Made by a program: the position numbers and the translations under genes. Below, in pieces: positions 8,205 through 54,416 of a stretch of DNA of 56,100 bases. The notes below the pieces were generated by a model that was given only the letters and a program-made list of their open reading frames with translations, made no database searches and was not told the DNA's origin. Each line of letters starts with the position of its first letter. The stretch's first letter is position 1. Source of the DNA: a virus (lineage: Duplodnaviria; Caudoviricetes); IMG/VR virus record IMGVR_UViG_3300032397_000015, positions 1 through 56,100 of that record; one strand, given 5' to 3'.

Positions 8205-8220
8205 GGCATAAGGGTTTTGA
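8205..8220 (+). promoter_or_regulatory. Conserved GGCATAAG-N4-TTGA motif (putative phage-specific promoter) upstream of ssb
   Basis: GGCATAAGGGTTTTGA; the same core precedes all four plus-strand blocks. Confidence 0.75.
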
Positions 8221-8268
8221 ACGCAGACACTAGGTCTAGCGCACCCACCATTTCAGTCAGGAGCCACA

Positions 8269-8670
8269 GTGAACATCCAGTTTTTCTCAGGGAACTTGGG
8301 CAAGGACCCAGAAACCAAGACGGTCGGAGATACGACCGTCACCAAGATCACCGTCGCCTGCGGTGAGCGGTGGAAGGACAAGGACGGCAAGCCACAGGAG
8401 AAGACGGAGTGGATCGAAGTCTCGTTCTGGGGGCCGCAGGGAGAGGCCCTGGCCAAACATCGCAAGAAGGGCGATGGCATCGTGGGATTCGGCAAGACCG
8501 AGACCAGGGCCTATGACGAGAAGGGCGAGAAGAAGTACTACCGCTCGGTGCGTGGTAGTCACTGGGAGTTCCCGCCCGGCCGCAAGGCGCCAGGCGAGAG
8601 CTCTGGCCATCACGACGATAACGATGGCCCGCCCGCGTCGGCCTCTTCCGGCGACGACATTCCGTTCTGA
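8269..8670 (+). CDS. ssb: Single-stranded DNA-binding protein
   Basis: GNLGKDPE, E-KTEWIEVSFWG OB-fold signature, and acidic C-terminal tip DDIPF. Confidence 0.95.
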   Translation: MNIQFFSGNLGKDPETKTVGDTTVTKITVACGERWKDKDGKPQEKTEWIEVSFWGPQGEALAKHRKKGDGIVGFGKTETRAYDEKGEKKYYRSVRGSHWEFPPGRKAPGESSGHHDDNDGPPASASSGDDIPF

Positions 8671-8681
8671 AAGGAGAGGCT

Positions 8682-9107
8682 ATGTATTACTTCACCCACC
8701 GTCAAAGTAATGGCACCCCCTCCAGCCTCGAATTGGCGCTCGGCGACTTCGTCGTGACGCCAGGCGGGGTGATGGCGTGGCTGCAGCCTCCGCTTGGCAA
8801 GCTGTCCCGTCATTACCCATGGCGGGCGTTCCCGTTCGCCATGTCCGCCATGAGGACGCTGATCGATCTTGAGTCAGATCCGGACCTGCTGTGCAGGCTC
8901 TCGAATCGTCTGAGCCTGAGCGTCGACGAGACGAACATGCTCAGTGAGAAGATGGAGATCGTGACAGAGGATACGAACAGGCTGATCTCATGGTCGTATG
9001 AGATCGCCGATCAGTGCCCCCACAGAGAGATTGCCAACATGCTCAGAAATGTTGGCAGCATGGGGTCAAGGGAGCGCGACGGCTTCGTCGCTTCATTCCT
9101 GGACTGA
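8682..9107 (+). CDS. Hypothetical protein
   Basis: 141 aa with a strong AAGGAG RBS; follows ssb. Confidence 0.75.
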   Translation: MYYFTHRQSNGTPSSLELALGDFVVTPGGVMAWLQPPLGKLSRHYPWRAFPFAMSAMRTLIDLESDPDLLCRLSNRLSLSVDETNMLSEKMEIVTEDTNRLISWSYEIADQCPHREIANMLRNVGSMGSRERDGFVASFLD

Positions 9108-9148
9108 TCGTCAAGGGGTCGATGGAGATGGCGCAACGCGCCATTTTC

Positions 9149-10234
9149 TTAGCCAACCTTGGCGCCGCGGTAACCGCGCTGCGGATTGTTCAAGCTCTTG
9201 ATCGTGTCCGAAAAGTAAGCTGACTTGCTCGGCGGCTTGGCTTTCGCCGTCTCCTTGGCCCTGGCCGATGGATTTGTATTGGGGCGAGTCGTCTTCGGTT
9301 TTGGGGCCGACATGCCCGTGTGCCAAGCCGCGCTGGCGGATGCGCGCAGCAGCCCGGGAGATTGCACCTCCTTGCCCGCAGTGGCAGCGGTCTTCTCGGC
9401 AGCCGCATCTCCGCCGCGCAAGGCGGCCAGCACCTTCTGAGCGATGAGAGTCGCCAGCATGGGGGTTGCTGCCGCCAGGGCATAGGTGCCGTAGGCGGGA
9501 AGCAGTTCTTTCGCGGTCTGCGCAACGCCGGGGCCGAATTTGCGAGCGCCGACCAGCGCGTTCTTCGTCGCCCTGGCCTCCTCTAGCAACTGCGGCACGG
9601 CTGTCGCCCCAACCAGCAGTGGGGCGTGGTCGCGCGCAAAGCCACGAGCATCGGTCTCGTCGTCCTTCGCCGCCGTGATGGCGTTCAACATTAAGCCAGC
9701 TCGCGCTGGCCCGCCGACCAACCTGACGGCCGCCCCGAAGTTCTGCCAGATATTGCGCAGCAGGGTGCTGCCGAGGATCGGCGAGGCGTGGCCGATCTCA
9801 TGCATCATCACCGGGACCGATCCCAGCCTGGTGACAATCTGCTCCTCGGCCAATCCCAGCGGAAGACCAAGTCTGTCTGACAGCTTCTTGGCCTCGGCCG
9901 GGTCCATATTCCTGGCTACCATCGGCATCCCAGGAAAGAACATCGCATTGCCAGGAACCCCGCCGGCCATCATCGGAGTCGTTACGCCTTTGCTAGCCGC
10001 AAAGTCTGTCAAGTCCTGTACTTCTTTGCGTGTAAAGGCTGAGAGCTGCTCCAGTGGAGTTCCTGTCACCTCCGTCACCGGACTCATGGCATTCCACCTG
10101 TCCGAGATCGCCCCTCCAAGGGCGCGCTGCCCCATCTTCCCAGCCTGCAGCGTTGCCAACATCGCCGCCACGGACGGCAGGGAGCTCCTCTGAAAGCTTG
10201 GCGCGGGTGCCGGTTTGTCGCTGTCGTCCGCCAT
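9149..10234 (-). CDS. Putative zinc metallopeptidase (HEXXH) with hydrophobic segments
   Basis: MMHEIGHAS plus downstream LLEEARAT (candidate third ligand Glu); TGATG coupling to the RNAP gene. Confidence 0.6.
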   Translation of the reverse strand: MADDSDKPAPAPSFQRSSLPSVAAMLATLQAGKMGQRALGGAISDRWNAMSPVTEVTGTPLEQLSAFTRKEVQDLTDFAASKGVTTPMMAGGVPGNAMFFPGMPMVARNMDPAEAKKLSDRLGLPLGLAEEQIVTRLGSVPVMMHEIGHASPILGSTLLRNIWQNFGAAVRLVGGPARAGLMLNAITAAKDDETDARGFARDHAPLLVGATAVPQLLEEARATKNALVGARKFGPGVAQTAKELLPAYGTYALAAATPMLATLIAQKVLAALRGGDAAAEKTAATAGKEVQSPGLLRASASAAWHTGMSAPKPKTTRPNTNPSARAKETAKAKPPSKSAYFSDTIKSLNNPQRGYRGAKVG

Positions 10235-13200
10235 CAGTAAACTCCCTCAGTCTTCGACCTGCCTGTTGGATCTTCTCCGAATTCAGCCCCATAGGCAAAG
10301 CCGGGGATGGGCGAGTACCCATGCAAGTCAGACTCGGCGCCACGTGCAGCGCCCTCGACAATGGCGGACTTCAGGCGTCGATAGCCCATCTGGCTCATCC
10401 AGTCGTCGCGCATCATGGGAATCTCCTGGATGCCCTTGAGGAAGGGGCGGTGGAGGATGGGCAGCGGTCCGGTCTCGACCTCCGTGAGTCCCGTACGCTC
10501 CAACAGCTTCTTGACCCGGTCGTTGATCACGGTCCCCTTGGGGACCCCGGGCACGTCCTCCTGGAGCGTCATGCCGTGGGCGTCTTCCAGACTCTTCTTG
10601 CCGAGCTTCTTGGCGTTGTAGTCCTCGACCACAGTCCAGGGCGCCACGTCGCCGGGAAGGAAGTCGCTGCCGCCGGGGTCCAGCACTCGAGTCGTATTTC
10701 CGACCGACCGCACGACTGTTTCGATGGCGCGCCGCTTCAGGTCGACACCCTGGCTGGCATAGGCAGACTGGATCTCGTTGGAGAGGTACTCCTGAGCGGC
10801 GCGCATCCCCTTGAGGCGAGCGAGCTCATCGGGCTGAGCCAGGCCCTTGGAGATGATGTCTCCCTTGGAGATCTGACTACCGACGCGAATCCTGTCCGAG
10901 TCCCACAGGTCGTTGGGGATGTAGTGATTCTTGCCATCGATGCTGACGTCCCTGCCGGTATCGCCTACCGACGACGTGACGCTATCGACCGTGCCATCGT
11001 TTTGCGCGAGGGCGGCCTTGCCCCGCTTGATCTCCGGCATCTTAAGCAGCTTGTCGATCTTGTCGTAGCCAGAGATAACGCCGCGAGTGCCGGAGATGCC
11101 ACCGGAGTGGAAGGTGCGCATCGTCATCTGGGTCAACGGTTCGGACATCGCCTGTCCGGAGGTGGCGCCAACGTTGTCGCCAATCGACGGCGACATCCCA
11201 TGCTCGTTGATCCCGTAGCACTTGGCGCAAACCCCCTTCGGCAGCCTACAGGTGATGGGCGAGCGGACGTCCACGGTCTTGATCTTGCGATCGCGCAACG
11301 TGCTCAGCAGGCCAGATGTCACCTGGCTGCCTGCATGAGCGACGACCTCGCCCTTGTACAGGATGTCCTTGGCGAGGAAGCGGTCCTCGACGTCCGACGA
11401 ATTGATGTCGACGTCGAGCCCCTCATGCGTGCCGCAGTCGTCCTTGGCGATGACCGTCGACACAGCCGAGGCCATGATGTCCTTGTTGAACTCGCCAGGC
11501 TTGCTGGTCTGGAGCTGCTTGTCGACGGCCGTGGCGCGAGCTCCATAGAGCGTGCTCCAGTAATCGGAGAACGGCAGCCCCTCCGAGAAGGAATTCATGA
11601 TCGGGAAGGGGGAGGCGTTGCCACGATGGTCGTCGACCATGAACGGCGTGGACACCGTCTGCTTGAGCTGGGTCATGTTGCCGCGCGCACCTGACCGGAC
11701 CATCAGATTCAGATTATTGGTCTGGGCGTTCAGGCCGGACGTCACAGCGGCGTCGAGCTGCTTGCCGGCGGCACCCATGATCTGTCGCCCCTCCTCGCGC
11801 TGGGCGGGATCTGACAGGTCTAGCTTGTTAAGCGCCTTGGTCGTCTGGTCGAAGATGCCTTGCTTGCCGGGGATCACGGGCGTCAAGTCTTTCATGCTGA
11901 CCGTGAAGCCTGTGCGGTAGGTGTGCTCGTCACCGAGCTCCTTCAGCTTGTCGAGCACCTTGCCGTAGTCGCGCGGCATGGTTTCGGCTAGATCCATGGT
12001 CAGCGCGCGCAGACCCTTCTTATCCAGTTCGACATCCTTGAACTTCTCCTGCATCGAGGCCGGAAGCAGCGCCGTGATCGCACCCCGCTTGGCCGGATCC
12101 TTCGACATCAGGAATAGCCCCAGGGCAGACTCATTCTGCGGCGTCATCATGATCTGCCCGGTGCCGGGGTTGTAGAGATTGTTGGATGGCAGCATCCGCT
12201 TCGCCTCCTCGACCGCATCCGGCAGCACGGGCACATGGACCGTCATGGCGTCGCCGTCGAAGTCGGCGTTGAAGCCCTTGACCACCAACGGCGGAATCTT
12301 GATGGCCTTGCCGTCGGTGATCTGCGGCATGAATGACATGATCGAGAACTTGTGGAGAGAGGGGGCGCGATTCAGGATGATCGGACGCTCCTTCATCTCG
12401 GCGTCGAGCGCGGCCCGTGCGCTGGGAGTGCGGTCCTTGACTTCCTTGGACGCCTCCGTCGGGGATTTACCGGCGGAATTGACCAATCGTCGCGTGATGA
12501 ACGGCTGGAAGATGTTCCAGGACATCTCTTCCGGTAGGCCCACCTCGTCCAACCCGAGCTTTGGCTCGGGAATGATGGTGCCGCGCCCGACCAGGTCTTG
12601 ATTGCGCCGCAGCACGCTCTTGATGAAGAAGCCTTCTTTGGCAGCCTTGTCTCCTTTGATCTGCCGGATGATGCCTTGAGGCACCCGCGACTTGGGGTAT
12701 TTGGCGATGGGATCACCCAGCCCATAGATGGCGGCGACGCCGTCGTACAGATTCTGACGAAGGTCCGACTTCGACGACTCAGGGATGTAGTCCACCCCCT
12801 TCTGCCAAGCCAGCTCGTTGTTGACCAGGCTGACGTCACGGTAGAGCGTGTTCAGTCCTGGATTTGAGATCTGACCGTCGTCGCTTTCCACGATCTGCCG
12901 GAACTGCGGGGGGATGATCGGAATCTTGCTCTGGACGTAGGCGTCCTCGGGGCGCACCCCCGTCTTCTTCAGAGCGTGCAGGTACTTCAGCTTCTTGTTC
13001 GCTTCATCGAGCTTCGCGGCGGTCTTGGACGTCTTGGCCTTGTCCGTCCACGTCTTGATATCGGCATCAACATCGATTCGGCTGAGCATCTTCTGGAAGG
13101 CGGGGCCTCCCGTCAGCCCCTTGTCTGCCCACTCTCCGGTGGCGGGATCGACAAACAGGTCTCCCTTGACCAAGCCCTTGTACTGCGTGTCCGAGATCCC

Positions 13201-16200
13201 CGTCAGCTTCTTGATCGGATTCTCGAAGACAGGGTTGGCGATGGGTTCTGAGAGCTGGATATGACCCCAGCGGTCACCGAGCTTGCCGCCAAAGATCTCC
13301 GGATCCATCAGCCCCCCGACCTCTTCGCGCAGGTCCTTGCCGCGCACGAAGATGGGCTCCTTGATAGCCCCCGAGCTCATGTTCGTGACCTCTTTGTCGG
13401 TCATCGGGTTGATGATCATCCTGGAGCCGTTGCGCTTGGTATTCACGCCTGCGCCGTTCAGGTATGCCTCGAATTTCTTGTACGCGAAGGTAGGCTGGGG
13501 CGGTGGGGCGATCTGTCCGCTCTTGTGGCCAGCCGACAGCCAGTTCCAAAAGTTCTCATTCTGAGAGCCCTTGTATGTCGCCATCTCGCGCAGGTTTGCC
13601 CGACTGCCGTGAGACAGCATCGAGTAGAAGGACAAGAGGTCCAGCGCCTTGGCGCCATCCTCGCCGCCTCTGAGAGGAGCGCGGTTGATGTCGTACTTTC
13701 CGTCGCTGCGGGCGGAAAACTGCGAGGTGGCCTGCTTGGCCAACTTGAGAACGTACTGCGGACCTACCAGCACATCGCCCAGCGGCTCCTTGCTGTGCGC
13801 ATCGAACAAGGTCTCGGTATCGGAAATCTTGTTCTTCGCCAGCTCAGCGGTCATGTCGCGGGCGTAGTCGGCACCCGTGAAGTTGTCGACGACGTACGGC
13901 TTTCCGTTCTTCTCGGCGATCTTGGCCGCTGCGGTCTCGAGGATCTGCGACGGGTTGATGCGCGTGACGATGCCGTGCGGATTTAGGAGGATGTCGACCT
14001 TGTTCGCCGTGCCATCAGCGTTCTGCGTATAGGGCGCTTCCCCGTCGGAAATGATCTTGGTGATGATGCCCTTCGCTCCGTGCCTGTTCGTGAGCTTGTC
14101 GCCAATCTGCGCTGGCTCGTTGGTCTTTACATAGACCTTCACCTTCTTGCCAGCCTTCACGACATCGACGACCGTCCCGTCGGCATCTCCGGTCCATTCC
14201 TCCATGTGGCCACGCCGAGGGTTCGTGCTCGGGGCGATCTTTTTCATCGCCAGGTATTCGGGGTCGTACTTGTTCTCACGCGTCCCCACCCAGAGCGGGT
14301 CGCCCTTCTGTAGAACCTGGCCCTTGCGGACGATGCCGTCGTCGTCCAGCTTGTCCTGCTGCTCCGGCGTCAGCGCTCCGGGCCTCCAGGCCATGAATGC
14401 GTCCTTGGAGAACGCATCGCCTTTGTCGGCAGAGACCGAATGCTCGTGCATGTGCTCGCTGGCAAGCTTCTTGGCCGCCGCCTCGGTGATGACGATGCCG
14501 TCCTCAAAGTTGTAGCCCTTATACGGGACATAGGCCGCCCGCAGGTTGGTGCCGATGGCGAGGGTCCCGTCGCGGGTGAAGTTGGAGTCGGCCAGCACGC
14601 CGCCCTCCTTGACCACATCGCCTGCGACGACGGTTGGGTCAGAGTGCAAAAATGACTTTCCGTTCAGCGGCAGATTGTTGTAGATCGGCTGCTCGACCAC
14701 TCCATCCTTAGTCCGGACGGTAATCCTGTTTGGAGTAACCTTCTCAACCACGCCGTCGGCCAACGACCTGACCGAGAACCCCTCGCCAATCGCATCCTCG
14801 ATGGTCCCCTTGCCGACCTTGACCTGAACCAGCGGCGCTTCGCGGCTAGTCAGCGGGATGGCCTGCTCGATCATCTTCGTAGCCATCTGCGCACGCACGC
14901 CCTGCGCCGACGCCAAGAACGGGATCGTGTTGGAGGCGATGGAGAACGCCTGCTTCGCGGACGAGAGCACTGCATCGACGTCGGACGCCTTCACCGACTG
15001 CATCTCGCCCTTGATCATGACCTTGACCTTGTCGGCGATGGGCTTGCCATTTCGATACTGGTCGGGGAACGCCACCACCATGTCTCGCATGTCAGACGGG
15101 CTGGCCCAGCTCTGAGTTCCGTCCTTCGGGTTGGTCACCCTGGTCTGCAGGTCCTCTTTGTCCTTCGACGTCCCCATCGGCAGGTTGAGCACGATGCCGA
15201 TGTTGCTGGAGTCGGGCGTGTGAATCGGGTCAATGAACCCCATGTGCGACGGATGAAGCGAGTGCTCCTCATCGCGAACTGCTCGCTCCGACTGAACCCC
15301 GCCCTCGCCAAGGATGGTGACCTTGGAGCTCCCGTTGATCATGTTGATCGGGTTGGTCTGGTCCGTCGTGTTGGCCAACGACGACTGGGTGAAGAAGCTG
15401 GTGAAGATGGAGCTCAGTTCGTTAGAGCTGACCAGCTTGGAGATGTCGGTAGGCGGAGACTTGCGATTGTTCAGGCGGTAGAAGATCTTCTTGCGCAGCT
15501 CGGACAGCTTCGGTGCGAGCTCGCCGGATTCCTGGATAAGGCGTTCGCCGATCAGGTCGGCGGGCCCCAAGACCTTCTTGTACTCAAGTGCCTCGCGGTC
15601 ATCGATCCCTCGCTGCCCCCTGGTCAGCTTGAGCAATTCCGATGACCCGTCGAGCAGCGCCTCTGGCCCTACCCTGTCGTAGCCCCTGCCGAGCGTGGCC
15701 TTGGTGACCTCAGGACGAATCTCTCCGTCTGATTCAAAGAACCCGTTGATGGCCTCGGCGGCCGCAGCAGGTGAGTCGTGCTTGGAGCGAGTAAAGTACT
15801 CGCCCGCCTTGAGCACGGCCTGCGTGGACTTCTTCTCGTTCAGCGCCTTGTTGACCTCGAGCACATCCACGCCCCACGCCTTGGACATTGCGGAATCAGA
15901 GACTCCGATCCTGGAAAGGATGGGATAGAGCGGCACCCCCGTACTATCCTTTCCACCCTTCATCAGCTTGAAGACGCCGCTGGCGTCGTCATATTTGATG
16001 TCGAAGGGGCGTCCGGCGATGTTGATCTCGGTCTTCTTCTCGCCGTTTTTCTTCTCGGTGACGTAGATGCCCGGCTTGCGGCGCAGCTGGTTCTGGACCT
16101 GGTAGTGCTTACCGTCGACAATGAAGCTACCCAGGTCGGTGGTCTTGGGCAGCGTGGCGATCTTCAGCTTGTTCGTCGACGACAGTACCTCTCCAGTCTT

Positions 16201-16434
16201 CCGGTCGACCAGGTCCATCGCCACGTAGACTGGGACGCCCCAGGTCCTGTCCTTACGGACTGCCTCGCGCTGCGACTCCCAGTCGGCTGAGTCTTTGTTG
16301 TCGTCTACCCATACGTTTTTGACCACGATCTTCCGGCCAGTGCCGGTGGCCTGGATGTCCAGGGCCTTCGAAAAGGACGAGACCACGTCCTTTTTGATCT
16401 TCTCGAACTGGCTGGCATGGTCAAACGGGTTCAT
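10234..16434 (-). CDS. rpoBC: DNA-directed RNA polymerase, fused beta-beta' single polypeptide (2066 aa)
   Basis: Beta motifs GSFIVDG, HPSHMGFIDPIHTPDSSNIG, GYNFEDG, GDKLTNRHGAKG, DILLNPHG. Beta' motifs GLMDPEIFG, WGHIQL, LNRAPSLH, catalytic NADFDGD (12250-12270), SGARG, RSPITC...CAKCYG, trigger loop EPLTQMTMRTFHSGG. All lie in one frame with no internal stop. Confidence 0.97.
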   Translation of the reverse strand: MNPFDHASQFEKIKKDVVSSFSKALDIQATGTGRKIVVKNVWVDDNKDSADWESQREAVRKDRTWGVPVYVAMDLVDRKTGEVLSSTNKLKIATLPKTTDLGSFIVDGKHYQVQNQLRRKPGIYVTEKKNGEKKTEINIAGRPFDIKYDDASGVFKLMKGGKDSTGVPLYPILSRIGVSDSAMSKAWGVDVLEVNKALNEKKSTQAVLKAGEYFTRSKHDSPAAAAEAINGFFESDGEIRPEVTKATLGRGYDRVGPEALLDGSSELLKLTRGQRGIDDREALEYKKVLGPADLIGERLIQESGELAPKLSELRKKIFYRLNNRKSPPTDISKLVSSNELSSIFTSFFTQSSLANTTDQTNPINMINGSSKVTILGEGGVQSERAVRDEEHSLHPSHMGFIDPIHTPDSSNIGIVLNLPMGTSKDKEDLQTRVTNPKDGTQSWASPSDMRDMVVAFPDQYRNGKPIADKVKVMIKGEMQSVKASDVDAVLSSAKQAFSIASNTIPFLASAQGVRAQMATKMIEQAIPLTSREAPLVQVKVGKGTIEDAIGEGFSVRSLADGVVEKVTPNRITVRTKDGVVEQPIYNNLPLNGKSFLHSDPTVVAGDVVKEGGVLADSNFTRDGTLAIGTNLRAAYVPYKGYNFEDGIVITEAAAKKLASEHMHEHSVSADKGDAFSKDAFMAWRPGALTPEQQDKLDDDGIVRKGQVLQKGDPLWVGTRENKYDPEYLAMKKIAPSTNPRRGHMEEWTGDADGTVVDVVKAGKKVKVYVKTNEPAQIGDKLTNRHGAKGIITKIISDGEAPYTQNADGTANKVDILLNPHGIVTRINPSQILETAAAKIAEKNGKPYVVDNFTGADYARDMTAELAKNKISDTETLFDAHSKEPLGDVLVGPQYVLKLAKQATSQFSARSDGKYDINRAPLRGGEDGAKALDLLSFYSMLSHGSRANLREMATYKGSQNENFWNWLSAGHKSGQIAPPPQPTFAYKKFEAYLNGAGVNTKRNGSRMIINPMTDKEVTNMSSGAIKEPIFVRGKDLREEVGGLMDPEIFGGKLGDRWGHIQLSEPIANPVFENPIKKLTGISDTQYKGLVKGDLFVDPATGEWADKGLTGGPAFQKMLSRIDVDADIKTWTDKAKTSKTAAKLDEANKKLKYLHALKKTGVRPEDAYVQSKIPIIPPQFRQIVESDDGQISNPGLNTLYRDVSLVNNELAWQKGVDYIPESSKSDLRQNLYDGVAAIYGLGDPIAKYPKSRVPQGIIRQIKGDKAAKEGFFIKSVLRRNQDLVGRGTIIPEPKLGLDEVGLPEEMSWNIFQPFITRRLVNSAGKSPTEASKEVKDRTPSARAALDAEMKERPIILNRAPSLHKFSIMSFMPQITDGKAIKIPPLVVKGFNADFDGDAMTVHVPVLPDAVEEAKRMLPSNNLYNPGTGQIMMTPQNESALGLFLMSKDPAKRGAITALLPASMQEKFKDVELDKKGLRALTMDLAETMPRDYGKVLDKLKELGDEHTYRTGFTVSMKDLTPVIPGKQGIFDQTTKALNKLDLSDPAQREEGRQIMGAAGKQLDAAVTSGLNAQTNNLNLMVRSGARGNMTQLKQTVSTPFMVDDHRGNASPFPIMNSFSEGLPFSDYWSTLYGARATAVDKQLQTSKPGEFNKDIMASAVSTVIAKDDCGTHEGLDVDINSSDVEDRFLAKDILYKGEVVAHAGSQVTSGLLSTLRDRKIKTVDVRSPITCRLPKGVCAKCYGINEHGMSPSIGDNVGATSGQAMSEPLTQMTMRTFHSGGISGTRGVISGYDKIDKLLKMPEIKRGKAALAQNDGTVDSVTSSVGDTGRDVSIDGKNHYIPNDLWDSDRIRVGSQISKGDIISKGLAQPDELARLKGMRAAQEYLSNEIQSAYASQGVDLKRRAIETVVRSVGNTTRVLDPGGSDFLPGDVAPWTVVEDYNAKKLGKKSLEDAHGMTLQEDVPGVPKGTVINDRVKKLLERTGLTEVETGPLPILHRPFLKGIQEIPMMRDDWMSQMGYRRLKSAIVEGAARGAESDLHGYSPIPGFAYGAEFGEDPTGRSKTEGVY

Positions 16435-16454
16435 TGGGCCACCTAACCCCCGCG

Positions 16455-16470
16455 GGCATAAGGATTTTGA
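16455..16470 (+). promoter_or_regulatory. Conserved GGCATAAG-N4-TTGA motif
   Basis: GGCATAAGGATTTTGA in the divergent gap between rpoBC and the 16550 island. Confidence 0.75.
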
Positions 16471-16549
16471 GAACAGAGCTTACCCGTAACCGTCGTCGGA
16501 TTGCTCCAACATCTCAACAATACTCAAGCATTCAGAGGAGGGCTACGCC

Positions 16550-16759
16550 ATGTACTTCTTTCCAGCAAGCTCAGGAGGCGCGAACGACGGACGCTCGTCA
16601 TTGGCGGGGGATGCCAAGAATCGTGTACTGATCGCGATCGTCGAGGCAAGCCTGTGGACGGTCGCCAGGGCGGCGGAGATGTGGCTGCTCTCGTCGGTGT
16701 TGATCAACCTGTCCGGCAGGCGTTCGTCGCGTAAATCTTCAAATCGAAACCAAGCATAG
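16550..16759 (+). CDS. Small hypothetical protein with hydrophobic segment
   Basis: 69 aa with GAGGAGG RBS. Confidence 0.6.
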   Translation: MYFFPASSGGANDGRSSLAGDAKNRVLIAIVEASLWTVARAAEMWLLSSVLINLSGRRSSRKSSNRNQA

Positions 16760-16773
16760 GAGGAGACCCAGGC

Positions 16774-18509: not shown

Positions 18510-18804
18510 TGCTGTCTCCCTTGTCGAGTTTCGGTTTCTTGATCCAGTAGTGAACCACAAGAAAGACTTCTTCGGTCGTTGTGACGGTCGCATCTTCACC
18601 GTTGCCGTCGCGGACCGTAGTCTTGCGCGTGTACTCACGGATCTGCTCAATGTAGATACCCTGGGAGGCGTCGTTGGCATTGGTGCGCAGCAGCGCGTAC
18701 TTGCCCATGTCGTCGTCGTCGAACATGTTGTAACGCCCGACGATGAACTCGCCGAGGTTCTTACCGCCTGTGGCGACCTTGACGTCACTGACCTTGGCAG
18801 CCAT
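18454..18804 (-). CDS. Hypothetical protein
   Basis: 116 aa; coupled to the portal stop. Confidence 0.7.
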   Translation of the reverse strand: MAAKVSDVKVATGGKNLGEFIVGRYNMFDDDDMGKYALLRTNANDASQGIYIEQIREYTRKTTVRDGNGEDATVTTTEEVFLVVHYWIKKPKLDKGDSNADVKEARRDWAKERSVG

Positions 18805-21755
18805 TAGACAGCTCCTCCGCCGCGGCGAGGCGGCGCCATCTGGGGCGCGGGCTTGTTGCGATCTTCAGCCTGCCCCGCGGTTTCGCCAGTCTGCATCTGA
18901 GCCAGTAGTTGCTCGACCAGGCGAGCCATGTTGGGCATCTTCTGGCGAAGGTCATTCAGGACACCCTCGCGCTGGTCGGGTGGCAATTGGGCGATGCGGT
19001 TGGCCCAATTCTTAGCCACCTTGGACGCATCCATCTGCACGACCTGGCCGCCGGCCGAGGTGCCCGTCTCGCCCTCCACGTTGGCCGGCAGCTGCGCCGC
19101 GCCCTGGAGGGCGGCTTGCTGTCCCATCTGCTGATCAGCGGCCTGCTGGTCAGCGGAGGGTGCGTCCTGCGCCATCTGGGGCTGACCCTCCTGCGGCTGC
19201 GCCTGCGGCTGCTGGTCGCCCTGCTGCATCTGGCCCTGGCCCTGCTCGCCTTGGCCAGGCTGACCGCCCGACTGGCCACCGGACGCTTCGTTCATGGCCT
19301 CCTGGGCACGGGCCTGGTACTTGGCCTGGACGATAGACGCCTCGCCCTGCGCCTCGCTCTGGGCCTTCATGGTGACGGCCTGGATGCGGTTACGCTGGTC
19401 GGCTTCCTTTTCGATCATCTTGAGCTCGTCGTCGTAATCGAACCCAAGCTCGGTGAGCATCGTGTGGTCGGAGATCTTGTTGGCAGCATTGAGCTGGATG
19501 ACGATCTGCTTGCGCTGGATATCGTCCGCCATCTTGAACTCGGTGAAGCCGATTTCGATGTCGGGTAGACCCAGGTACAGCCGGATGCGATTCTTCGCCC
19601 AGTTGACGAAACGGAGCAGGAGGCGGCGGTGCATGAGGAAGTGGTTCTCCAGGGTCCGCAGGGAGACCGAGGAGCCGGACCAGGATAGGCCGCCGAACAC
19701 GAACTCCAGCGGCACGCCCATGCCGCCGGTGATCTCCTTGTTCGTGACCTCGATCTCCGGGCCGAGCAGCAAGGCGCGGCCATCGCCGCCCAGGCGCTCG
19801 AAGCCGAGTGGCACGGCCACGACCGAGATGTAGTTCGGGTCGGTGCGCCACTTCCGGATTTCGTTCTGGACGGTGCCTTGCCAGCTCGACAGGTTGACGT
19901 GCTGATAGGGGTCCTGTTGCGCGTTGGCCTGCGGAAAGATGAACTCGAGCGGCATGATCCGCTGGAGCGCAATCGCCTCCTGAGCACGACGCAGGACGTA
20001 CAGATAAAACATGCGGCCCATCGAGTGGATGATGAGCGGCTTGCCCCAGCCCATGTCCGCCTCGGCCAGGGTCGGGCGCTTGAAGTGAAAGAGGTTTTGG
20101 TCGGAGAGGGCGATGTCACGCTTCTGCTTGAGCGCCTGGAGAAAGATCTCCGGAATGTCGACCAGGATGGCCCGCTCGCCGCCCTGGATGGCCTTCTGGA
20201 TCTTGTTAGGAATCTTGTAGCGATACTTCGACCGACCGGTGATCGGGTTGTAGTGGATGTCGATGTTCTTCGGATCCCAGCGAACGAAGTTGATGCCGGA
20301 CCGATCTCTCAGCGGCTTATCAACGATCTTGGCGACGCAGCTGATGCCGCAGTCCTGGCACTTGATGTTGAAGCCGAAGTTCTGGAACTTGTACTCGACC
20401 GCGGGATCTGACAGGCGGTGCAGAGACTTGCATCCAGTGCACTGCAACCAGCGCACGAACGGCAGGTTGATCGAGATGAAGGCGTTGCCGTAGCAATTCC
20501 CGGTCAGGACGCCGTTGTCGATAGTGAAGGTGTGGGTCTCCATCTCGACGCAGCAGAACACCTCGTCGACGAGTCCGGTCTCCCTAACGTCCTTGATGTG
20601 GACATATGAGCCATACCTGGTCGGCTTATAGTTCTCTTCGAAATTGGACCGATGACGGGATAGTAGAAAGTCCTGCGGAAGCAGGTACTGCTTGAACAGC
20701 GAAAGGAAGTGCATCGCCCCTTCGTATTCGTAGACCTTCTCGCCGTACTTGAAAGACGTCGATCTCTCGTATCCGCGAACCTGGCCGGCGATCATGCCAA
20801 TGCGTGGCAACTGATCGGCCACAGCGTCCAGGGTGGCCTTGGCCTTCTGGGTTAGTACCGCACAGCCGTTGACATCAACGGATCCGTCGGCGGCCAGGAA
20901 CCCGCACAGGAATCCGTACCAATAGCTGGCTGAGTTGGCGTTTGGAGGGAGCTCTTTGTAAGCAATCGGCAGCCCGTGAACCATGACGGTGCCGTCGGCA
21001 ACCTTGATAGCCGGCGACCCATGGCCCTCGAAATACTTGAGCATCTCGAGGTCTTTTTCGCCGTAGAAGTACGCCTTCGCCTGCTTGCCATCGTTATAGA
21101 GGCAGCCGTCGCCAAACACGAAACCGTGACGGACGCCTTCGTAGAAGTCTGCGTTCTGCTCGGGACGTGGTGCGACATTGCGCAGGATTCGCTTACCGGA
21201 AAGCTCCGTCGTCGGAACCCTCACTGTCTTGCCGTTGGAGTTGGTCACCACCCATTGATGCTCAGGGGTCGCCAGGACAGTCCGCCCGTCGTTAAACTCA
21301 ACCTCCAAAAGCTTTTGCCTGCCGAATGATTTGAACTCGGCGGGGCGATAGGTGCCGCCATCCGACAGGACATCCACCGTCTGGCCGGCCAGCTCTCGGA
21401 GCTTGAAAACCCCGTTCCTGGTAGTCACCTTGGTGTCGCCGTGGAAGCAGAAGAAATCGAGGCCGATTTCGATCAGGAAGGGCTTGAGGTTGAGGGTGTC
21501 CTCCATCAACTCCTTCCACCCGTCGCGGACGTGCTTCTCCTCGGCGTTGTAGACAAAGTCGGTGACCGGGTACTCGGCCATCTTCGTGACGACCGACCCG
21601 ATCATCGGGTCCTTGTAGAAGAAGTAGGCGCACCACCGGAACAGTTCCTTGACTGTCGGCGGCATGTAGGTCTGCGCAATGTCGAAGAACGGGGACGGGT
21701 ATACCGTTCCCCGCCTCCGATCTGCACCGCCCTGACCTAGCGAGATATCGGACAT
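18804..21755 (-). CDS. Portal protein interrupted by an intein; Gln-rich C-terminus
   Basis: Spliced junction GLDFF|CYGNAF matches the portal D..YGNAF motif; also RWDPKNI, WGKPLI, ITGGMGVP and LLRFVNWAKNRI. Confidence 0.85.
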   Translation of the reverse strand: MSDISLGQGGADRRRGTVYPSPFFDIAQTYMPPTVKELFRWCAYFFYKDPMIGSVVTKMAEYPVTDFVYNAEEKHVRDGWKELMEDTLNLKPFLIEIGLDFFCFHGDTKVTTRNGVFKLRELAGQTVDVLSDGGTYRPAEFKSFGRQKLLEVEFNDGRTVLATPEHQWVVTNSNGKTVRVPTTELSGKRILRNVAPRPEQNADFYEGVRHGFVFGDGCLYNDGKQAKAYFYGEKDLEMLKYFEGHGSPAIKVADGTVMVHGLPIAYKELPPNANSASYWYGFLCGFLAADGSVDVNGCAVLTQKAKATLDAVADQLPRIGMIAGQVRGYERSTSFKYGEKVYEYEGAMHFLSLFKQYLLPQDFLLSRHRSNFEENYKPTRYGSYVHIKDVRETGLVDEVFCCVEMETHTFTIDNGVLTGNCYGNAFISINLPFVRWLQCTGCKSLHRLSDPAVEYKFQNFGFNIKCQDCGISCVAKIVDKPLRDRSGINFVRWDPKNIDIHYNPITGRSKYRYKIPNKIQKAIQGGERAILVDIPEIFLQALKQKRDIALSDQNLFHFKRPTLAEADMGWGKPLIIHSMGRMFYLYVLRRAQEAIALQRIMPLEFIFPQANAQQDPYQHVNLSSWQGTVQNEIRKWRTDPNYISVVAVPLGFERLGGDGRALLLGPEIEVTNKEITGGMGVPLEFVFGGLSWSGSSVSLRTLENHFLMHRRLLLRFVNWAKNRIRLYLGLPDIEIGFTEFKMADDIQRKQIVIQLNAANKISDHTMLTELGFDYDDELKMIEKEADQRNRIQAVTMKAQSEAQGEASIVQAKYQARAQEAMNEASGGQSGGQPGQGEQGQGQMQQGDQQPQAQPQEGQPQMAQDAPSADQQAADQQMGQQAALQGAAQLPANVEGETGTSAGGQVVQMDASKVAKNWANRIAQLPPDQREGVLNDLRQKMPNMARLVEQLLAQMQTGETAGQAEDRNKPAPQMAPPRRGGGAV
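20496..21449 (-). mobile_element. Intein (318 aa) with LAGLIDADG/DOD homing endonuclease in portal
   Basis: Begins CFHGDTKV, block B ATPEHQW, endonuclease motifs HGFVFGDG and GFLAADGSV, ends HTFTIDNGVLTGN followed by Cys+1. Confidence 0.92.
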
Positions 21756-25435: not shown

Positions 25436-25465
25436 AAGGTATCACGCCTGTTTCAGGGGGGTCAA
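25436..25465 (-). promoter_or_regulatory. sigma70-like promoter TTGACC-N18-TACCTT with extended -10 TG
   Basis: Read on the minus strand about 25 nt upstream of the 25411 start. Confidence 0.55.
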
Positions 25466-25489: not shown

Positions 25490-25505
25490 GGCATAAGAGC
25501 TTTGA
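25490..25505 (+). promoter_or_regulatory. Conserved GGCATAAG-N4-TTGA motif
   Basis: GGCATAAGAGCTTTGA upstream of the single plus-strand gene at 25555. Confidence 0.75.
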
Positions 25506-25872: not shown

Positions 25873-25905
25873 GCCGGAGGGGGTTACTCCCCTCCGGCTG
25901 TTTTT
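25873..25905 (+). terminator. Intrinsic terminator
   Basis: GCCGGAGGGGG-TTAC-TCCCCTCCGGC stem-loop followed by TGTTTTT, between convergent genes. Confidence 0.85.
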
Positions 25906-25910
25906 AGCTA

Positions 25911-33727: not shown

Positions 33728-33757
33728 ATTCTAGTCGTACGCCTGCCGCACCGTCAA
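33728..33757 (-). promoter_or_regulatory. sigma70-like promoter TTGACG-N18-TAGAAT
   Basis: Lies in the intergenic gap upstream of the 33715 start. Confidence 0.7.
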
Positions 33758-40953: not shown

Positions 40954-41832
40954 CTAGCGCTCCACGTTGGACTGACGATAGTAGTAGTCGAGCTTCTTTT
41001 CGATCTGCTTCTTGAGTCCGCGGACCTTCTGCGGGGACATGTTCAGGGCCTTGCCCAGCTGCAGCGGATCTTCTATGACGGGCTTGCCGAAGCCGCTGAA
41101 CGTGTGCTCCAGGATGAGCTGCTGGTCCGGATTGAGCGATCCGTGCAGGAAGGCTGCCTGCTGCTCGACCATCGAGTTGCCGGCCAGGGTGCCCTCGTGT
41201 CCGGCGCTCTCAGCCAGGAAGTCGCTGCGCAGCTCACGGCGAAGCGTGCCGACCATCTTCGGCGTGACCGTCTTCTGACGAAGCGCGGACAGGTCGGGCA
41301 TGGAGATCAGGACGTCGTCTGCCAGCTCCGCGTCGGAGGGCGGCCGGCCGTGTATCTCGGAGAGCTCGGCTTCGCGCTGCTTGAGCGTGCCGATCAGCCA
41401 GGAGCGATCTTCCGGGATGCGCCCGATGTTCGAGTACCGCTGCATGTAGCGGTCCATCTGTCGACCCAGGCCGTAGGTGATGTGAGTCGACAGCTGGGCG
41501 CCGCGAGTCGGATCGTAGGTGTCGATCGCCTTGACGTACCGCCGCATGATCTGGCCCTTGATCGCGGCCTTCGGCAAGTTCGAGGATGCGACGTACCTGT
41601 TCGTGGCGGAGTTGATGAGTGGCTGGTGGCTGTTCAAGAGCCAGCTGAAGTCTTCGGGGTTCGGGTTGGCGCGCCAGCGCTGCCAGGACTCCATCTCCTG
41701 TTGCTTGAGGTCGTCACGCGAGATCCCCTCAGCGGCCGCCTGCTTGGTCAGCCACTCCTCGAGCTCGCGCTCTAGATCTTCCTCAACCTGTGAATCCACG
41801 GGCGTTGGCCAATTCCTCTCGGTATGCCTCAA
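40954..41832 (-). CDS. RNA polymerase sigma70-family factor (group 3, SigF/FliA-like); start may be GTG 41799
   Basis: Region 2 KAIDTYDPTRGAQLSTHITYGLGRQMDRY...GRIP; region 3 IHGRPPSDAELAD; region 4 LNPDQQLILE...LGKALNMSPQKVRGLKKQIEKKL. Confidence 0.9.
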   Translation of the reverse strand: MRHTERNWPTPVDSQVEEDLERELEEWLTKQAAAEGISRDDLKQQEMESWQRWRANPNPEDFSWLLNSHQPLINSATNRYVASSNLPKAAIKGQIMRRYVKAIDTYDPTRGAQLSTHITYGLGRQMDRYMQRYSNIGRIPEDRSWLIGTLKQREAELSEIHGRPPSDAELADDVLISMPDLSALRQKTVTPKMVGTLRRELRSDFLAESAGHEGTLAGNSMVEQQAAFLHGSLNPDQQLILEHTFSGFGKPVIEDPLQLGKALNMSPQKVRGLKKQIEKKLDYYYRQSNVER

Positions 41833-50127: not shown

Positions 50128-50128
50128 T

Positions 50129-50482: not shown

Positions 50483-50505
50483 CCGCGCCCATCCCGAGGG
50501 AGAGC

Positions 50506-51186: not shown

Positions 51187-51222
51187 ATCGATCCTTTTGA
51201 TTCACCGGGTTGTAGCCGGTCC

Positions 51223-51251
51223 AGTGTAGGCCGCGACGACGGCCCGGTCAA
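51223..51251 (-). promoter_or_regulatory. sigma70-like promoter TTGACC-N17-TACACT
   Basis: Heads the tail operon, about 37 nt upstream of the 51186 start. Confidence 0.75.
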
Positions 51252-51268
51252 CGCATCCCCGGTCGTCC

Positions 51269-51284
51269 GGCATAAGGAACTCAA
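51269..51284 (+). promoter_or_regulatory. GGCATAAG motif (variant GGCATAAG-GAAC-TCAA)
   Basis: Directly upstream of the AAGGAGG RBS of the first gene in the right-hand plus-strand block. Confidence 0.7.
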
Positions 51285-51294
51285 GGAGGATTCC

Positions 51295-52425
51295 ATGTCC
51301 CGGTACACCATTTCTCAGTCCTATCAACCCACCCAAGATGAGCTCAACCGCTGGGCTCGGGAGGCCGAGTGCTTCGCCCACCAGGCCCCGAATCCCAATG
51401 CCCCGTCCAGCAGCAACGCGGCTCGAGGCTGGGGCGTCGCGCGCGACCTCAAGCCGCCGGTCGATGCCGTAGCCTTCGTCACCGGCATGTTCAAGCGCGA
51501 CGTTGGCGGCGTTCCGACCAGCGCCGAACTCCGACCGGAGTTCATGTGGTCGATCTTCAGCATCTGCATGGCCCACTTCCTATGGATGCGAACCCCGCCA
51601 GGGGCCGAATGGCTGATGCGCCTGTTCGGCGTGGAAGAGGTTCCACCGTTCACGGCGGCGTACGTCTATCACTACCTGGACCGCTCCAGGCTGATTGCCG
51701 GTGAACCGACTCGCGTTCTGCTCGATGAGGGTAGCGGTGTCCAGCTGCGCATCTTTCGGACCTGCGAAAGGAAGCTCGATCCGCCCATCACCTCACAGCA
51801 CGACGAGCGCATCGCCGCCATGCAGCAGATCTTGCGCAACCACCGCGACCCCAACTCCAACGAGCTCATCGCCGAAGGTACGCCGGACATGTACCACTGG
51901 GTCAGCGAGCAGCTCCAGGAGTGGTTCCTGGAGACCAAGGCGGACCCGAACTGGCCCAGCCGGAAGCCAGATCGCATCACCGGCCATCAGTGGGCCAAGT
52001 CAGTAGAGCGGCGGCCCGGCGTCCCATTCTACGAAGCGCTCCACTATGTGGAGCTCCACAAGGGCCGATGCTACCGCATGAAGGATTCACAGGGCGGCGT
52101 CCTGTGGTGCGGCGGAAGTGACATCCGGTTCATGTTGAAGCCGGACTATCACCGGGCCAACCAGGACATGTCCGAGCATCAGATCCAGTCCGTCTACAGC
52201 TGCTCGAGCTGCCGAAAGATTCGGCCCTGCACGCCGGTTACTGGCGGCCAACACATGTGCTGCCACTGTCTGGGGACGGTCTCGGAGCGGGAAGATCGCA
52301 AGACGCTCGACTGGTGCACGATGAAGGAGTGTTCGCGCTGTACCGACCACATCGAAAACAACTCAGACCTGATCAACCTCAAGAACAGACTGAACAGGGA
52401 GGCCGCCTTCCCCGTACGGAGATAG
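51295..52425 (+). CDS. Hypothetical protein with C-terminal Cys-rich Zn-binding domain
   Basis: 376 aa; CSSCR...C...CCHC...CTMKECSRC; AAGGAGG RBS. Confidence 0.8.
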   Translation: MSRYTISQSYQPTQDELNRWAREAECFAHQAPNPNAPSSSNAARGWGVARDLKPPVDAVAFVTGMFKRDVGGVPTSAELRPEFMWSIFSICMAHFLWMRTPPGAEWLMRLFGVEEVPPFTAAYVYHYLDRSRLIAGEPTRVLLDEGSGVQLRIFRTCERKLDPPITSQHDERIAAMQQILRNHRDPNSNELIAEGTPDMYHWVSEQLQEWFLETKADPNWPSRKPDRITGHQWAKSVERRPGVPFYEALHYVELHKGRCYRMKDSQGGVLWCGGSDIRFMLKPDYHRANQDMSEHQIQSVYSCSSCRKIRPCTPVTGGQHMCCHCLGTVSEREDRKTLDWCTMKECSRCTDHIENNSDLINLKNRLNREAAFPVRR

Positions 52426-52433
52426 GGTGACGC

Positions 52434-54416
52434 ATGCGAGCTCTGGTCGAGAAGGGGAGGATCCAGATCCACTTCGAAGGAGATGATGAAAGCATGATCA
52501 GGCAGCAGGAAGCCCTGCTGTCGATCGGCTCGATCACCTTCTCCGAAGTGGAGCTCGGCCGCGCGTCCTGCGCGCTTAGCGTACAGAATTTCAAAAAGCT
52601 GCGGCTGGCCGGCTGCAAGCTCGGCGACGACGACCACACCCGAGCGGTCGTTGCCAAAATGGCGGCCGGGCGGGGCGTCTATGACGAGGACACGGCCCGG
52701 GCGGCCAAGGCCAAGGCTGGGGTAGTTCTCGTCCAGAACTACAGCTTCAAGCTGCCGCCGTTCGACCACCAGAAGATCGGGTTCCAGTTCCTGCACTCGA
52801 TCAGGGAAGCTGCTTTGTTCGGCGACTGCGGAACCGGCAAGACCTTCATGGTCCTGACCTTCGGCGACAGCCTGCTCAAGGCCGGAGAGCCTTGGGTATT
52901 CCTGGTCGTCTGCCCGGTCAACCTGATCAAGCACGTCTGGATCGAAGACGCGGGCAAATTCTCAGACCTGACCACGCTGTCCCTGCGCGAGAAACCCACC
53001 ACCGTCTCGGCCAAGGACTGGAGAGCCGGAGCCGACAAGAAGGATCCGGGCGCCAAGGCAGCGGCGATGGTGGCGGCCAAGAAGCGTCACGGGGCCAAGC
53101 TGAAGGACCGGTTCGGGCAGGACGTCGACCTCTACGTCATCAACCCAGAGAACATCCGGGACGCCAAGAAGGAGAAGCGAGTCGTCGATCTCTGCAAACG
53201 CAGGCGGGCGGCTGGGATGCAGGTCTGTCTGATCATCGACGAGAGCTCCAAGCTGAAGAACCGAGCATCAGCTACCTACAAGGCGCTGACGCGCATCCGG
53301 GCTTACTGCGAGCGCTGCATCATCATGACAGGGACGCCGTCTCCCAATGGAGTCCTGGACCTTTGGTCGCAGTTCTCGGTGCTCGATGGCGGCAAGACTC
53401 TCCATCCTTCGTTCATCGACTACCGGGCCGAGGTGGCCAGGGAGATCACGCTACGCGGACTCAGCTATGTCGGGCGCGGAGGCAAGAGCATCCCGGTGAC
53501 CAAGTGGGAACAGCGTCCCGGGGCAGCGATGGATGTCTATCGGAAGATCGAGCCCAGGATGATCAGGTTCCGTACCGAGGATTGCATCGACCTGCCGCCA
53601 ACGCGCTTCATCATGCGCGACGTGACCATGAACGCGGAGCAGTCGTCGGTGTATGCGGACATGGAGGACATGTTGTTCGCCGAGCTCGAGGGGCAGCCGA
53701 TTACCGCCAGGGTCGCGGCGACCAAGCTCCTGAAGCTTCGTGAGGTGACGGGCGGCTTCGTCATCGCGGACTCGGGCAAGGAGATGCCACTGGGAGCGGA
53801 CTCGCCCAAGATGGTGGAGTTGGACGAACTGCTGGAGCAGTCCATCGCCGACAAGATCGGCGACGACGGCCCGCCGTCCAAGGCCCTCATCTGGGCGCAG
53901 TACCAGTGGGAATGCAAGACGCTGGTCAAGAGATACGAAAAGCTCTACGGAGCCAAGGGGCTGTTCGGTGGCATAAGCAGTGGAGGGAAGGACGCTGCCA
54001 TCAAGGCGTTCAAGGAGGATCCGGCTTGCCGAATCTTGGTCTGCCACCCTGCCAGCGCCGGCCATGGGCTGACACTGATCGAAGCCAACTACGCCTTCTA
54101 CTACTCGATGTCCTACAACTTCGAGGAGTTCTACCAGAGCTACCGCCGCATGACCCGGCCGGGGCAGAAGCGGCACATGACCTACTACTTCCTGGTAGTG
54201 CCGGACACGATCGACGAAGAACTCGTCGACGCTATCCGCGCCAAGAAGAACCTGTCCGACCTGATCACCGACGGCAAGTTCAGCCGAGATGAGCTAATCG
54301 GAAAACGGGGAGACCGCCCCACAACCATGTCCGTCGACTGGGAGGTGCCGCTTGCATCTGACGCCGATCCGACTCGACGAGCCGCTCCAGGAGAAGATCC
54401 TTCAGACCCTGCTTGA
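52434..54416 (+). CDS. SNF2/SWI2-family (SF2) helicase/ATPase
   Basis: GDCGTGKT, VVCP, IIDESS, MTGTP, GHGLTL and YQSYRRMTRPGQ motifs. Confidence 0.92.
   Translation: MRALVEKGRIQIHFEGDDESMIRQQEALLSIGSITFSEVELGRASCALSVQNFKKLRLAGCKLGDDDHTRAVVAKMAAGRGVYDEDTARAAKAKAGVVLVQNYSFKLPPFDHQKIGFQFLHSIREAALFGDCGTGKTFMVLTFGDSLLKAGEPWVFLVVCPVNLIKHVWIEDAGKFSDLTTLSLREKPTTVSAKDWRAGADKKDPGAKAAAMVAAKKRHGAKLKDRFGQDVDLYVINPENIRDAKKEKRVVDLCKRRRAAGMQVCLIIDESSKLKNRASATYKALTRIRAYCERCIIMTGTPSPNGVLDLWSQFSVLDGGKTLHPSFIDYRAEVAREITLRGLSYVGRGGKSIPVTKWEQRPGAAMDVYRKIEPRMIRFRTEDCIDLPPTRFIMRDVTMNAEQSSVYADMEDMLFAELEGQPITARVAATKLLKLREVTGGFVIADSGKEMPLGADSPKMVELDELLEQSIADKIGDDGPPSKALIWAQYQWECKTLVKRYEKLYGAKGLFGGISSGGKDAAIKAFKEDPACRILVCHPASAGHGLTLIEANYAFYYSMSYNFEEFYQSYRRMTRPGQKRHMTYYFLVVPDTIDEELVDAIRAKKNLSDLITDGKFSRDELIGKRGDRPTTMSVDWEVPLASDADPTRRAAPGEDPSDPA

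Follow-up and report, generated by a model that had tools for sequence, protein, structure and literature searches.

An eight-base word as the probable core of a phage-specific promoter class in phages encoding a fused RNA polymerase and a sigma factor

The IMG/VR virus record IMGVR_UViG_3300032397_000015 (Duplodnaviria; Caudoviricetes) is 56,100 bases long and is estimated to be 31% complete; it was analyzed over its whole length and is called the window throughout. On its plus strand, the eight-base word GGCATAAG precedes each of four short gene blocks, and we consider it very probably a promoter, as comparison with related sequences argues for the -10-type core of a phage-specific class that we term class I. 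This class would drive the non-structural plus-strand units, namely those for the single-stranded DNA-binding protein (SSB), a helicase, recombination, a sliding clamp, and many small genes. With clearly less assurance, we favor as its reader a 292-amino-acid (aa) sigma-70-family factor of the phage itself, most likely acting on the fused beta-beta' RNA polymerase (RNAP) encoded in the same window, as the co-occurrence of word and sigma suggests.

The word and its conservation

In the window, GGCATAAG occurs five times, always on the plus strand (5/0 plus/minus), against 0.73 copies expected on both strands (standard deviation 0.85), and none of 100 shuffles reached five. An initial annotation of this sequence had listed exactly these copies (8205, 16455, 25490, 51269, and 53970), and both coordinates and sequences proved correct. 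Matches with at most one mismatch number 24, against 24.5 expected; one-mismatch forms are at chance, and the word is therefore all-or-none in the window. Four copies lie in divergent gaps, co-oriented with the genes that follow and 18–87 nucleotides (nt) before the first plus-strand start codon (8269, 16550, 25555, and 51295), which agrees with the intergenic placement first proposed. Gene calls based on G+C content at third codon positions (GC3) put exactly four short blocks on the plus strand, each with a single intergenic copy.

The fifth copy, inside the helicase gene, lies 700 nt upstream of the next start led by a Shine-Dalgarno sequence. It uses an ATA codon, which is as uncommon here as had been claimed (18 of 17,064 codons, against 718 ATC and 122 ATT). 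In the sole comparable helicase ortholog, from the relative G005, the residues G-G-I-S are kept and the word is absent from their spelling.

The relatives were found in IMG/VR by way of the polymerase. Three close ones (G001, G002, and G003) have 76–86% polymerase identity, and G003, which is 100 kb long, overlaps the window over positions 1788–21910. Two further clade members, G004 and G005, have 59–60% polymerase identity and G+C contents of 68% and 51%. The preference for intergenic sequence claimed for the window also holds on a larger sample: over G003 and the non-overlapping part of the window, GGCATAAG is the top intergenic-enriched 8-mer, with 9 of its 13 copies in 7% of the sequence (p 2e-8). 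A search for variant intergenic words with one or two mismatches and ATAA intact returned no convincing extra sites.

The word keeps to one strand in each of these clade members. Plus/minus counts are 10/0 in G003, 2/0 in G001, and 2/0 in G002, where reversed-word controls gave 0, and they are 9/0 in G004 and 0/12 in G005. All four intergenic copies of the window, 10/10 in G003, 9/9 in G004, and all 11 copies examined in G005 lie upstream of genes and in their orientation. Several G003 copies stand 20–23 nt before a Shine-Dalgarno-led start codon, one follows directly after a terminator hairpin, and one, in a gap of 28 nt, begins 1 nt past the preceding gene's stop codon. As for individual window sites, the copy at 8205 has orthologous counterparts in G003, G001, G002, G004, and G005, that at 25490 an ortholog-like site in G004, and that at 16455 lies 20 nt from the divergent RNAP start codon. 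The predicted leader of the 51269 site begins at the Shine-Dalgarno sequence AAGGAGG, 12 nt before the ATG at 51295. Its G005 ortholog has the same geometry, with the start codon only 18 nt after the word, which therefore leaves no room for another promoter.

For the wider family, an alignment of 22 polymerase homologs led to at least 519 confirmed IMG/VR stretches, 80 of which were fetched; complete members are 166–209 kb long, several with terminal repeats. Counts were made over 82 sequences (1.98 Mb), with strand defined relative to the RNAP gene. On the RNAP-opposite strand and the RNAP strand, respectively, GGCATAAG occurs 74 and 8 times and GGTATAAG 63 and 7 times, and the degenerate form GGYATAAG (Y, pyrimidine) has 125 and 13 unique sites. 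All single-base variants of GGYATAAG are near symmetric, for example GGYATAAT with 17/8, and therefore all eight positions are specific, the final G included. In addition, GGYATAAG adjoins the start of the RNAP gene in the opposite orientation at 39 of 76 family loci and in the RNAP orientation at 0 of 76; for GGNATAAG, the opposite orientation is found at 47 of 76 loci and the RNAP orientation at none. The word is conserved at family G+C contents from 39% to 68%.

Strong strand bias is also evident in whole records (G006 1/11, G008 0/14, G015 16/0, G017 22/2, G019 0/11, G022 0/14, and G027 3/19). In G009–G011, G016, G018, G020, G021, G024, and G025, GGYATAAG is at control level; five of these are biased for GGRATAAG (R, purine), with counts of 8/3 in G009, 2/15 in G010, 18/7 in G011, 2/6 in G016, and 4/0 in G018.

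Anatomy, candidate reader, and a second promoter class

In a sequence logo of the 125 sites, numbered from the first G of the word, 79 carry T at +13 and 115 a purine at +14; among the 39 sites of the window's clade, 36 and 38 do so. Bacterial transcription starts are usually marked by a pyrimidine/purine step 6–7 nt past the hexamer. Because the step stands 6–7 nt after the word, we would place CATAAG at -12 to -7 and GG at -14/-13, with the start predicted 7 nt after the last G. The class I consensus would then read GG-Y-ATAAG, five nucleotides, T, purine.

Several details of the initial annotation look different in this light. It had extended the word by four bases and TTGA; the extension is exact in three of the four intergenic copies and needs three mismatches at 51269. 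Family-wide only the T/purine step survives, and TTGA is better read as start-site context plus a T-rich discriminator than as a second box. The C-rich sequence described upstream is borne out in part, with C two bases ahead of the word at 10 of 12 non-redundant sites; the base just before GG is A, C, or T in 4, 3, and 5 of the 12. No -35 box is shared in the window, as had been stated; reading the sequence gives a weak C-A-C 13–15 nt upstream, complete in two of the four copies. The same weak C-A-C recurs at 30, 25, and 26 of 39 sites of the window's clade, and distant clades have GAAA 17–20 nt before the word (A in 45, 60, and 61 of 85 sites).

Three other interpretations of these elements were discarded. 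A GTTCA in a MAFFT alignment of the upstream regions, considered as a -35 box, consists of the opening codons of two divergent genes (M-N and V-N). A sigma-54 promoter (GG at -24 and GC at -12, hence GG-N10-GC) does not fit, since there is no GC and what is conserved downstream is the T and purine 13–14 nt after the first G. The extended -10 consensus of primary sigmas, TGnTATAAT, is like class I in having its hexamer at -12 to -7, A at -11, G at -14, and a start about 7 nt downstream. It differs in carrying TG at -15/-14, whereas class I would have GG at -14/-13, C or T at -12, and an invariant G at -7. T at -7 is essential for primary sigmas, and the last base is G in all class I sites, the T-ending form being near symmetric as given above.

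The candidate reader belongs to the sigma-70 family. Its residues 65–286 align to residues 157–381 of SigA in 7l7b_F (E 8.7e-7), and its best PDB matches are SigA, SigB, and RpoS, which are group 1/2 sigmas. NCBIfam rows are of the RpoD/SigA type (4e-11), SigF (1.9e-5), and SigB/F/G (7.8e-5), all far below the curated cut-offs. The earlier analogy to group-3 sigmas such as SigE/G/K is not backed by these best matches, and a matching -35 at fixed spacing is not seen either. By alignment, region 2.3–2.4 departs from primary sigmas at positions that we take to be those recognizing the -10 element, and these differences fit a non-canonical -10.

Of 25 records, 19 have an ortholog of the 292-aa sigma, among them all 13 with a completeness of at least 90%, and no other sigma was found in every near-complete relative. 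Open reading frames (ORFs) with regions 2 and 4 above Pfam cut-offs occur in 3 of 17 records, and some distant relatives have extra sigma ORFs of extracytoplasmic function (ECF) size. In the sub-clade that uses GGRATAAG (G009–G011), the sigma orthologs group apart from the others when region 2 is aligned. This joint change of sigma sub-type and word, a single clade-level event, links the two in an only suggestive way. As a separate observation, a 162-aa protein of G003 (51023–51508; L124:11020–11508, minus strand) matches sigma-70 region 4 only (Pfam 5.8e-11) and sits in a motif-driven replication block.

A complex prediction of the sigma with polymerase segment 1000–1460 scored 0.81 (best of three controls, 0.00). 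Among solved complexes 116 of 157 attained that mark, as did 2 of 215 mismatched pairs; sigma and clamp helices are a textbook pair, and the score may reflect likeness to solved holoenzymes. Predicted contacts center on the clamp-helix region 1177–1228, runs agree on at least 62% of contacts, and the partner predicted local distance difference test (pLDDT) value is at least 76. The model supports docking of the sigma on the polymerase clamp helices. Next to the polymerase gene, a 361-aa ORF (9149–10234, minus strand) has a start that overlaps the RNAP stop and no Pfam, PHROG, or NCBIfam match; it could be an accessory polymerase subunit. Pfam also finds intein domains in many RNAP genes of the family.

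A second, sigma70-like promoter class, class II, which the initial annotation did not list, emerged once the -10 box was relaxed to TAnnnT. The pattern TTGACS-N16-19-TAnnnT has four matches in the window against 0.77 expected, a number that 1 of 100 shuffles reaches, and all four are intergenic and on the minus strand. Two of them stand back-to-back with class I sites: that at 51223..51251 with 51269, and that at 25436..25465 with 25490; the former has an ortholog in G005 and the latter in G004. At 33728..33757, both boxes and the leader are retained in G004 and G005. Several class II sites in relatives lie 5–7 nt before an ATG, and leaderless mRNAs are therefore implied. A TTGACN form is found within 300 nt upstream of the RNAP gene, in the RNAP orientation, at 14 of 70 family loci, and in the reverse orientation at 0 of 70.

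Stricter searches gave little. Sigma70 sites with at least 10 of 12 matches number 1 in 156 kb, strict consensus sites between 7500 and 27000 number 0 against 3.1 expected, and k-mers screened for another conserved word ahead of minus-strand genes yielded only the reverse complement of the motif. From the sequences, host holoenzyme could plausibly make the RNAP, in relatives of the 14/70 type, and the products of the sigma operon, in the window. Class II is the universal primary-sigma consensus, which is thus already taken; class I therefore needs another specificity factor.

Competing readings and known systems

The original proposal of a -10-type promoter element for phage-specific machinery is strongly backed by the comparative data, the TTGA box and the group-3 analogy apart. 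What has to be weighed is mainly the identity of the reader. The genes for RNAP and sigma are placed among those of the virion, on the strand that carries the structural genes, strict sigma70 sites are depleted between 7500 and 27000, and G003 has its region-4-only protein inside a motif-driven block. All this would suit a phage polymerase that uses another specificity factor, be it the 361-aa ORF, an accessory sigma-like protein, or the polymerase itself in the manner of phiKZ/AR9, and that is maybe delivered with the virion; the known phage multisubunit polymerases do operate without sigma homologs, according to the accessible part of a 2026 review. We nevertheless think it unlikely. Only 6 of 26 family records have a detectable region-4-only protein, and further sigma-like ORFs turn up sporadically, whereas the 292-aa sigma is present throughout the near-complete records and is predicted on the clamp helices, with the caveat of likeness given above. 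The sigma70-like promoters before RNAP genes at 14 of 70 loci mean, in addition, that virion delivery is not required.

A promoter read by a host sigma on host core, with the phage sigma and RNAP serving other genes, seems to us a shade less likely again. The host factor might be primary or alternative, for example a FliA/sigma28-like one, as ATAA is part of that type of -10 as well. In favor of this, the overall layout is sigma70-like, GAAA stands about 18 nt upstream of TATAAG in distant clades, and the GGTATAAG form used by many clades agrees with TATAAT at five of six positions. Closely spaced copies before small genes (G017 161116–165471 and G012 80423–95212) also resemble early regions, which are usually host-read. 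Against this, the last base is G and not T (125/13 vs 17/8) and GG stands in place of TG. The word is also invariant at 39–68% G+C, a uniformity unexpected of host alternative sigmas, and the canonical TTGACS-N16-19-TAnnnT class coexists with it in the same genomes.

Least probable, and by some distance, is that the word is no promoter at all and acts instead as an RNA-level signal of the 5' leader (processing, translation, or antitermination) or as the operator of a DNA-binding regulator. The strand rule and the position before genes are compatible with an RNA element too, and the G003 copy 1 nt past a stop codon would be typical also of a processing site. The word is, however, asymmetric and single at each site, unlike most operators, and two divergent gaps have only 20–24 nt of intergenic DNA upstream of it, so an extra promoter would sit inside the neighboring gene. 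The predicted leaders show no unusual folding (z-scores 0.01, -0.76, -0.22, and 0.11), they contain no Rfam family and no tRNA, and the fixed pyrimidine/purine step 6–7 nt downstream is what a start site predicts.

We therefore return to class I as a promoter for the phage's own sigma and polymerase. RNAP gene and sigma operon both lie on the other strand, where some such operons have class II promoters that host holoenzyme could use. Class II transcription by host holoenzyme, followed by class I, would amount to a two-step cascade. Taken further, and only tentatively, this widespread family of uncultured phages of about 165–210 kb may run a self-contained bacterial-style transcription system, in which host-type promoters would turn on the polymerase and sigma genes and back-to-back pairs of host-type and phage-type promoters would switch polymerases. 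Its parts may be one fused beta-beta' polypeptide, one dedicated sigma, and the word of its own, GG-Y-ATAAG-N5-T-purine; the switch sites may be the divergent gaps 25436–25505 and 51223–51284.

Several observations count against the favored reading of class I, its reader, and the cascade. No RNAP-gene promoter was recognized in the window's own clade, so that the cascade is an extrapolation from distant relatives. Class II also heads structural operons, which a simple early/late scheme does not fit, and the sigma gene itself has long stretches of tail and baseplate genes on either side, an unusual location for a factor needed to express replication genes. The sigma assignment consists of co-occurrence plus one clade-level co-variation, a single evolutionary event, and the complex prediction cannot distinguish phage core from host core as the partner. 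The window covers about 31% of the genome, and other sigma genes may lie in the unseen part. Four records (G020, G021, G024, and G025) are enriched neither for GGYATAAG nor for a tested variant. Finally, the predicted starts are read from a sequence signature, family-wide as it is.

Among known systems, T4 late promoters (TATAAATA, read by gp55 with gp33) come close in having one nearly invariant 8-bp word of the -10 type and a phage reader of the sigma family, for which there is a candidate here, and the window's clade likewise has no strong -35. The sequence differs, and here the word precedes replication, recombination, and small genes (0/37 structural) rather than late structural genes. 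The candidate sigma, moreover, is full-length (regions 2–4), and the phage here encodes its own polymerase core. SPO1 gp28/gp34 and phiEco32 gp36 are phage sigmas that redirect host core, each defining a temporal class by a phage-only consensus of its promoters; neither phage encodes a polymerase core, whereas here a fused beta-beta' is encoded beside the motif.

The phages phiKZ and AR9 share with this family a multisubunit-type polymerase of their own and short phage-specific promoter words. Their polymerases are split into several polypeptides and, in the accessible parts of the literature, are described without sigma homologs, whereas beta-beta' here is fused, cellular-like, and accompanied by a bona fide sigma. 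In the same way, the accessible parts of Iyer et al. (2021) and of a 2026 review describe phage multisubunit polymerases without sigma homologs and sigma-bearing jumbo phages without polymerases. Weinheimer and Aylward (2020; PMC7481178), in the portions available, define mReC as metagenomic RNAP-encoding Caudovirales with cellular-like beta/beta' plus terminase, portal, and baseplate. The window resembles these in its cellular-like RNAP domains, terminase, portal, baseplate J, and tail fiber. Membership is not confirmed, as none of six relatives' metagenome identifiers appears in the mReC rows of the supplements (97 contigs in the paper). Within the main text of PMC7481178, the words "sigma" and "promoter" occur 0 times. 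No description of the family's promoter was found in the literature searched, which lay outside subscription journals.

Units served, gene layout, and significance

The positions of the features are collected in Table 1. Downstream of class I sites in four genomes there are 37 proteins, of which SSB, SNF2 helicase, a Sak4-like ATPase, and the sliding clamp could be named; head or tail proteins among the 37 number zero. Hairpin-T-run terminators would close these units. The tail TTTTTAG(C) occurs 10 times on the motif strand (window 2, G003 8) against once on the other strand, and, being preceded by a hairpin at several sites, it suggests a common terminator design for motif-driven units.

Table 1. 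Positions of predicted promoters, terminators, and genes in the window and of TTTTTAG tails in the relative G003
Feature	Position	Strand	Details
Class I promoter (predicted)	8205..8220, core 8205–8212	+	Predicted start G8219; heads SSB unit 8269–9107
Class I promoter (predicted)	16455..16470	+	Predicted start G16469; heads small genes 16550 to about 17481
Class I promoter (predicted)	25490..25505	+	Predicted start G25504; heads 99-aa gene 25555–25854
Class I promoter (predicted)	51269..51284	+	Predicted start A51283; heads 376-aa gene, SNF2 helicase, further genes
Intragenic copy of the word	53970..53977	+	In SNF2 helicase; codons GGC ATA AGC; without flanking consensus
Class II promoter (predicted)	51223..51251	-	TTGACC-N17-TACACT; heads gap-free minus array 51186 to 33769, sigma gene included
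Class II promoter (predicted)	25436..25465	-	TTGACC-N18-TACCTT; heads minus operon starting 25411
Class II promoter (predicted)	33728..33757	-	TTGACG-N18-TAGAAT; 12 nt before ATG 33715
Class II-pattern match	8677..8705	-	Antisense, between SSB gene and next plus-strand gene
Fused beta-beta' multisubunit-type RNAP	10234..16434	-	2066 aa; Pfam Rpb2_3/6, Rpb1_1/2/5; NCBIfam rpoB, rpoC, rpoBC
Sigma-70-family factor	40954..41832	-	292 aa; regions 2–4; PHROG 351, 3e-11
Plus block 1	8269–9107	+	SSB (Pfam, PHROG) and 141-aa gene
Plus block 2	16550 to about 17481	+	Small genes
Plus block 3	25555–25854	+	Single 99-aa gene
Plus block 4	51295 to window end	+	376-aa gene, SNF2 helicase, further genes
Intrinsic terminator (predicted)	25873..25907	+	11-pair stem, 9 G-C, then T-run and AGC; closes 25490 unit
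Weaker hairpin-T-run terminator	about 9130–9150	+	Closes plus unit
TTTTTAG tails, window	25901–25907, 17459–17465	+	Two tails
TTTTTAG tails, G003 (reverse-complement coordinates)	6727, 10410, 40621, 45961, 51357, 63005, 72291, 87411	+	
Tail-fiber-like protein	2–1027	-	Collagen triple-helix repeats (Pfam 8.2e-16); PHROG tail fiber families

Some of the units have features in common. Three small motif-driven ORFs on the plus strand (16550–16759, 16774–17211, and 8682–9107) start with M-Y-F/Y-F/Y (MYFFP, MYFYP, and MYYFT) and, by this resemblance, may be paralogs. Similarly, the leaders at 16470–16500 and 25505–25520 (plus strand) share a purine-rich stretch followed by AGC-W-TACC about 24 nt after the word, which may be a common leader element or the remnant of a duplication.

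The minus strand of the window carries the collagen-like tail fiber, large terminase, portal with its putative intein, baseplate-J protein, many large unknown proteins, RNAP, and sigma; all structural genes lie on the strand opposite the motif. The portal gene (18804..21755, minus strand) contains an insertion of about 940 nt (20495–21432) that is not in the G003 ortholog. It probably holds an intein, since the insertion coincides with sub-threshold Intein_splicing and LAGLIDADG matches at residues 146–418.

As to where such phages occur, megablast of positions 44000–56100 found 0 near matches among GenBank phages, and an IMG/VR scan for the 16-base form returned 118 stretches, mostly unrelated, with 1 relative among them. 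Metagenome contigs scanned with the RNAP alignment yielded no confirmed relative. For positions 7500–17400, the sequencing runs listed were three of DNA and none of RNA. A scan of genome contigs with RNAP returned mostly cellular rpoB-rpoC and no host for the window's clade. One 162.5-kb contig (L242), in a metagenome-assembled genome of a Leptolyngbyaceae cyanobacterium, encodes a fused RNAP of the family type (35% identity, residues 1–2054); its binning hints weakly at a host, and does so for a distant branch only.

The usual view of sigma-carrying phages is that they borrow the host core. The phage multisubunit polymerases studied so far (phiKZ, AR9, and crAss-like) are sigma-less or work with sequence-unrelated factors, as the accessible part of the 2026 review has it. 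Here, a large metagenomic family combines a cellular-like fused beta-beta' with a full-length sigma, and the analysis supplies it with a precisely defined candidate consensus for its promoters, with predicted starts, and with another promoter class of host-like type. If the reading is true, the family would hold the first known case of a phage-encoded multisubunit polymerase working with a true sigma-70-family factor. Its biology can be tested without a cultured host, from the 2066-aa polymerase, the 292-aa sigma, and templates that carry the word, and the motif could serve to mark transcription units, to tag further family members, and to underpin an orthogonal expression pair.

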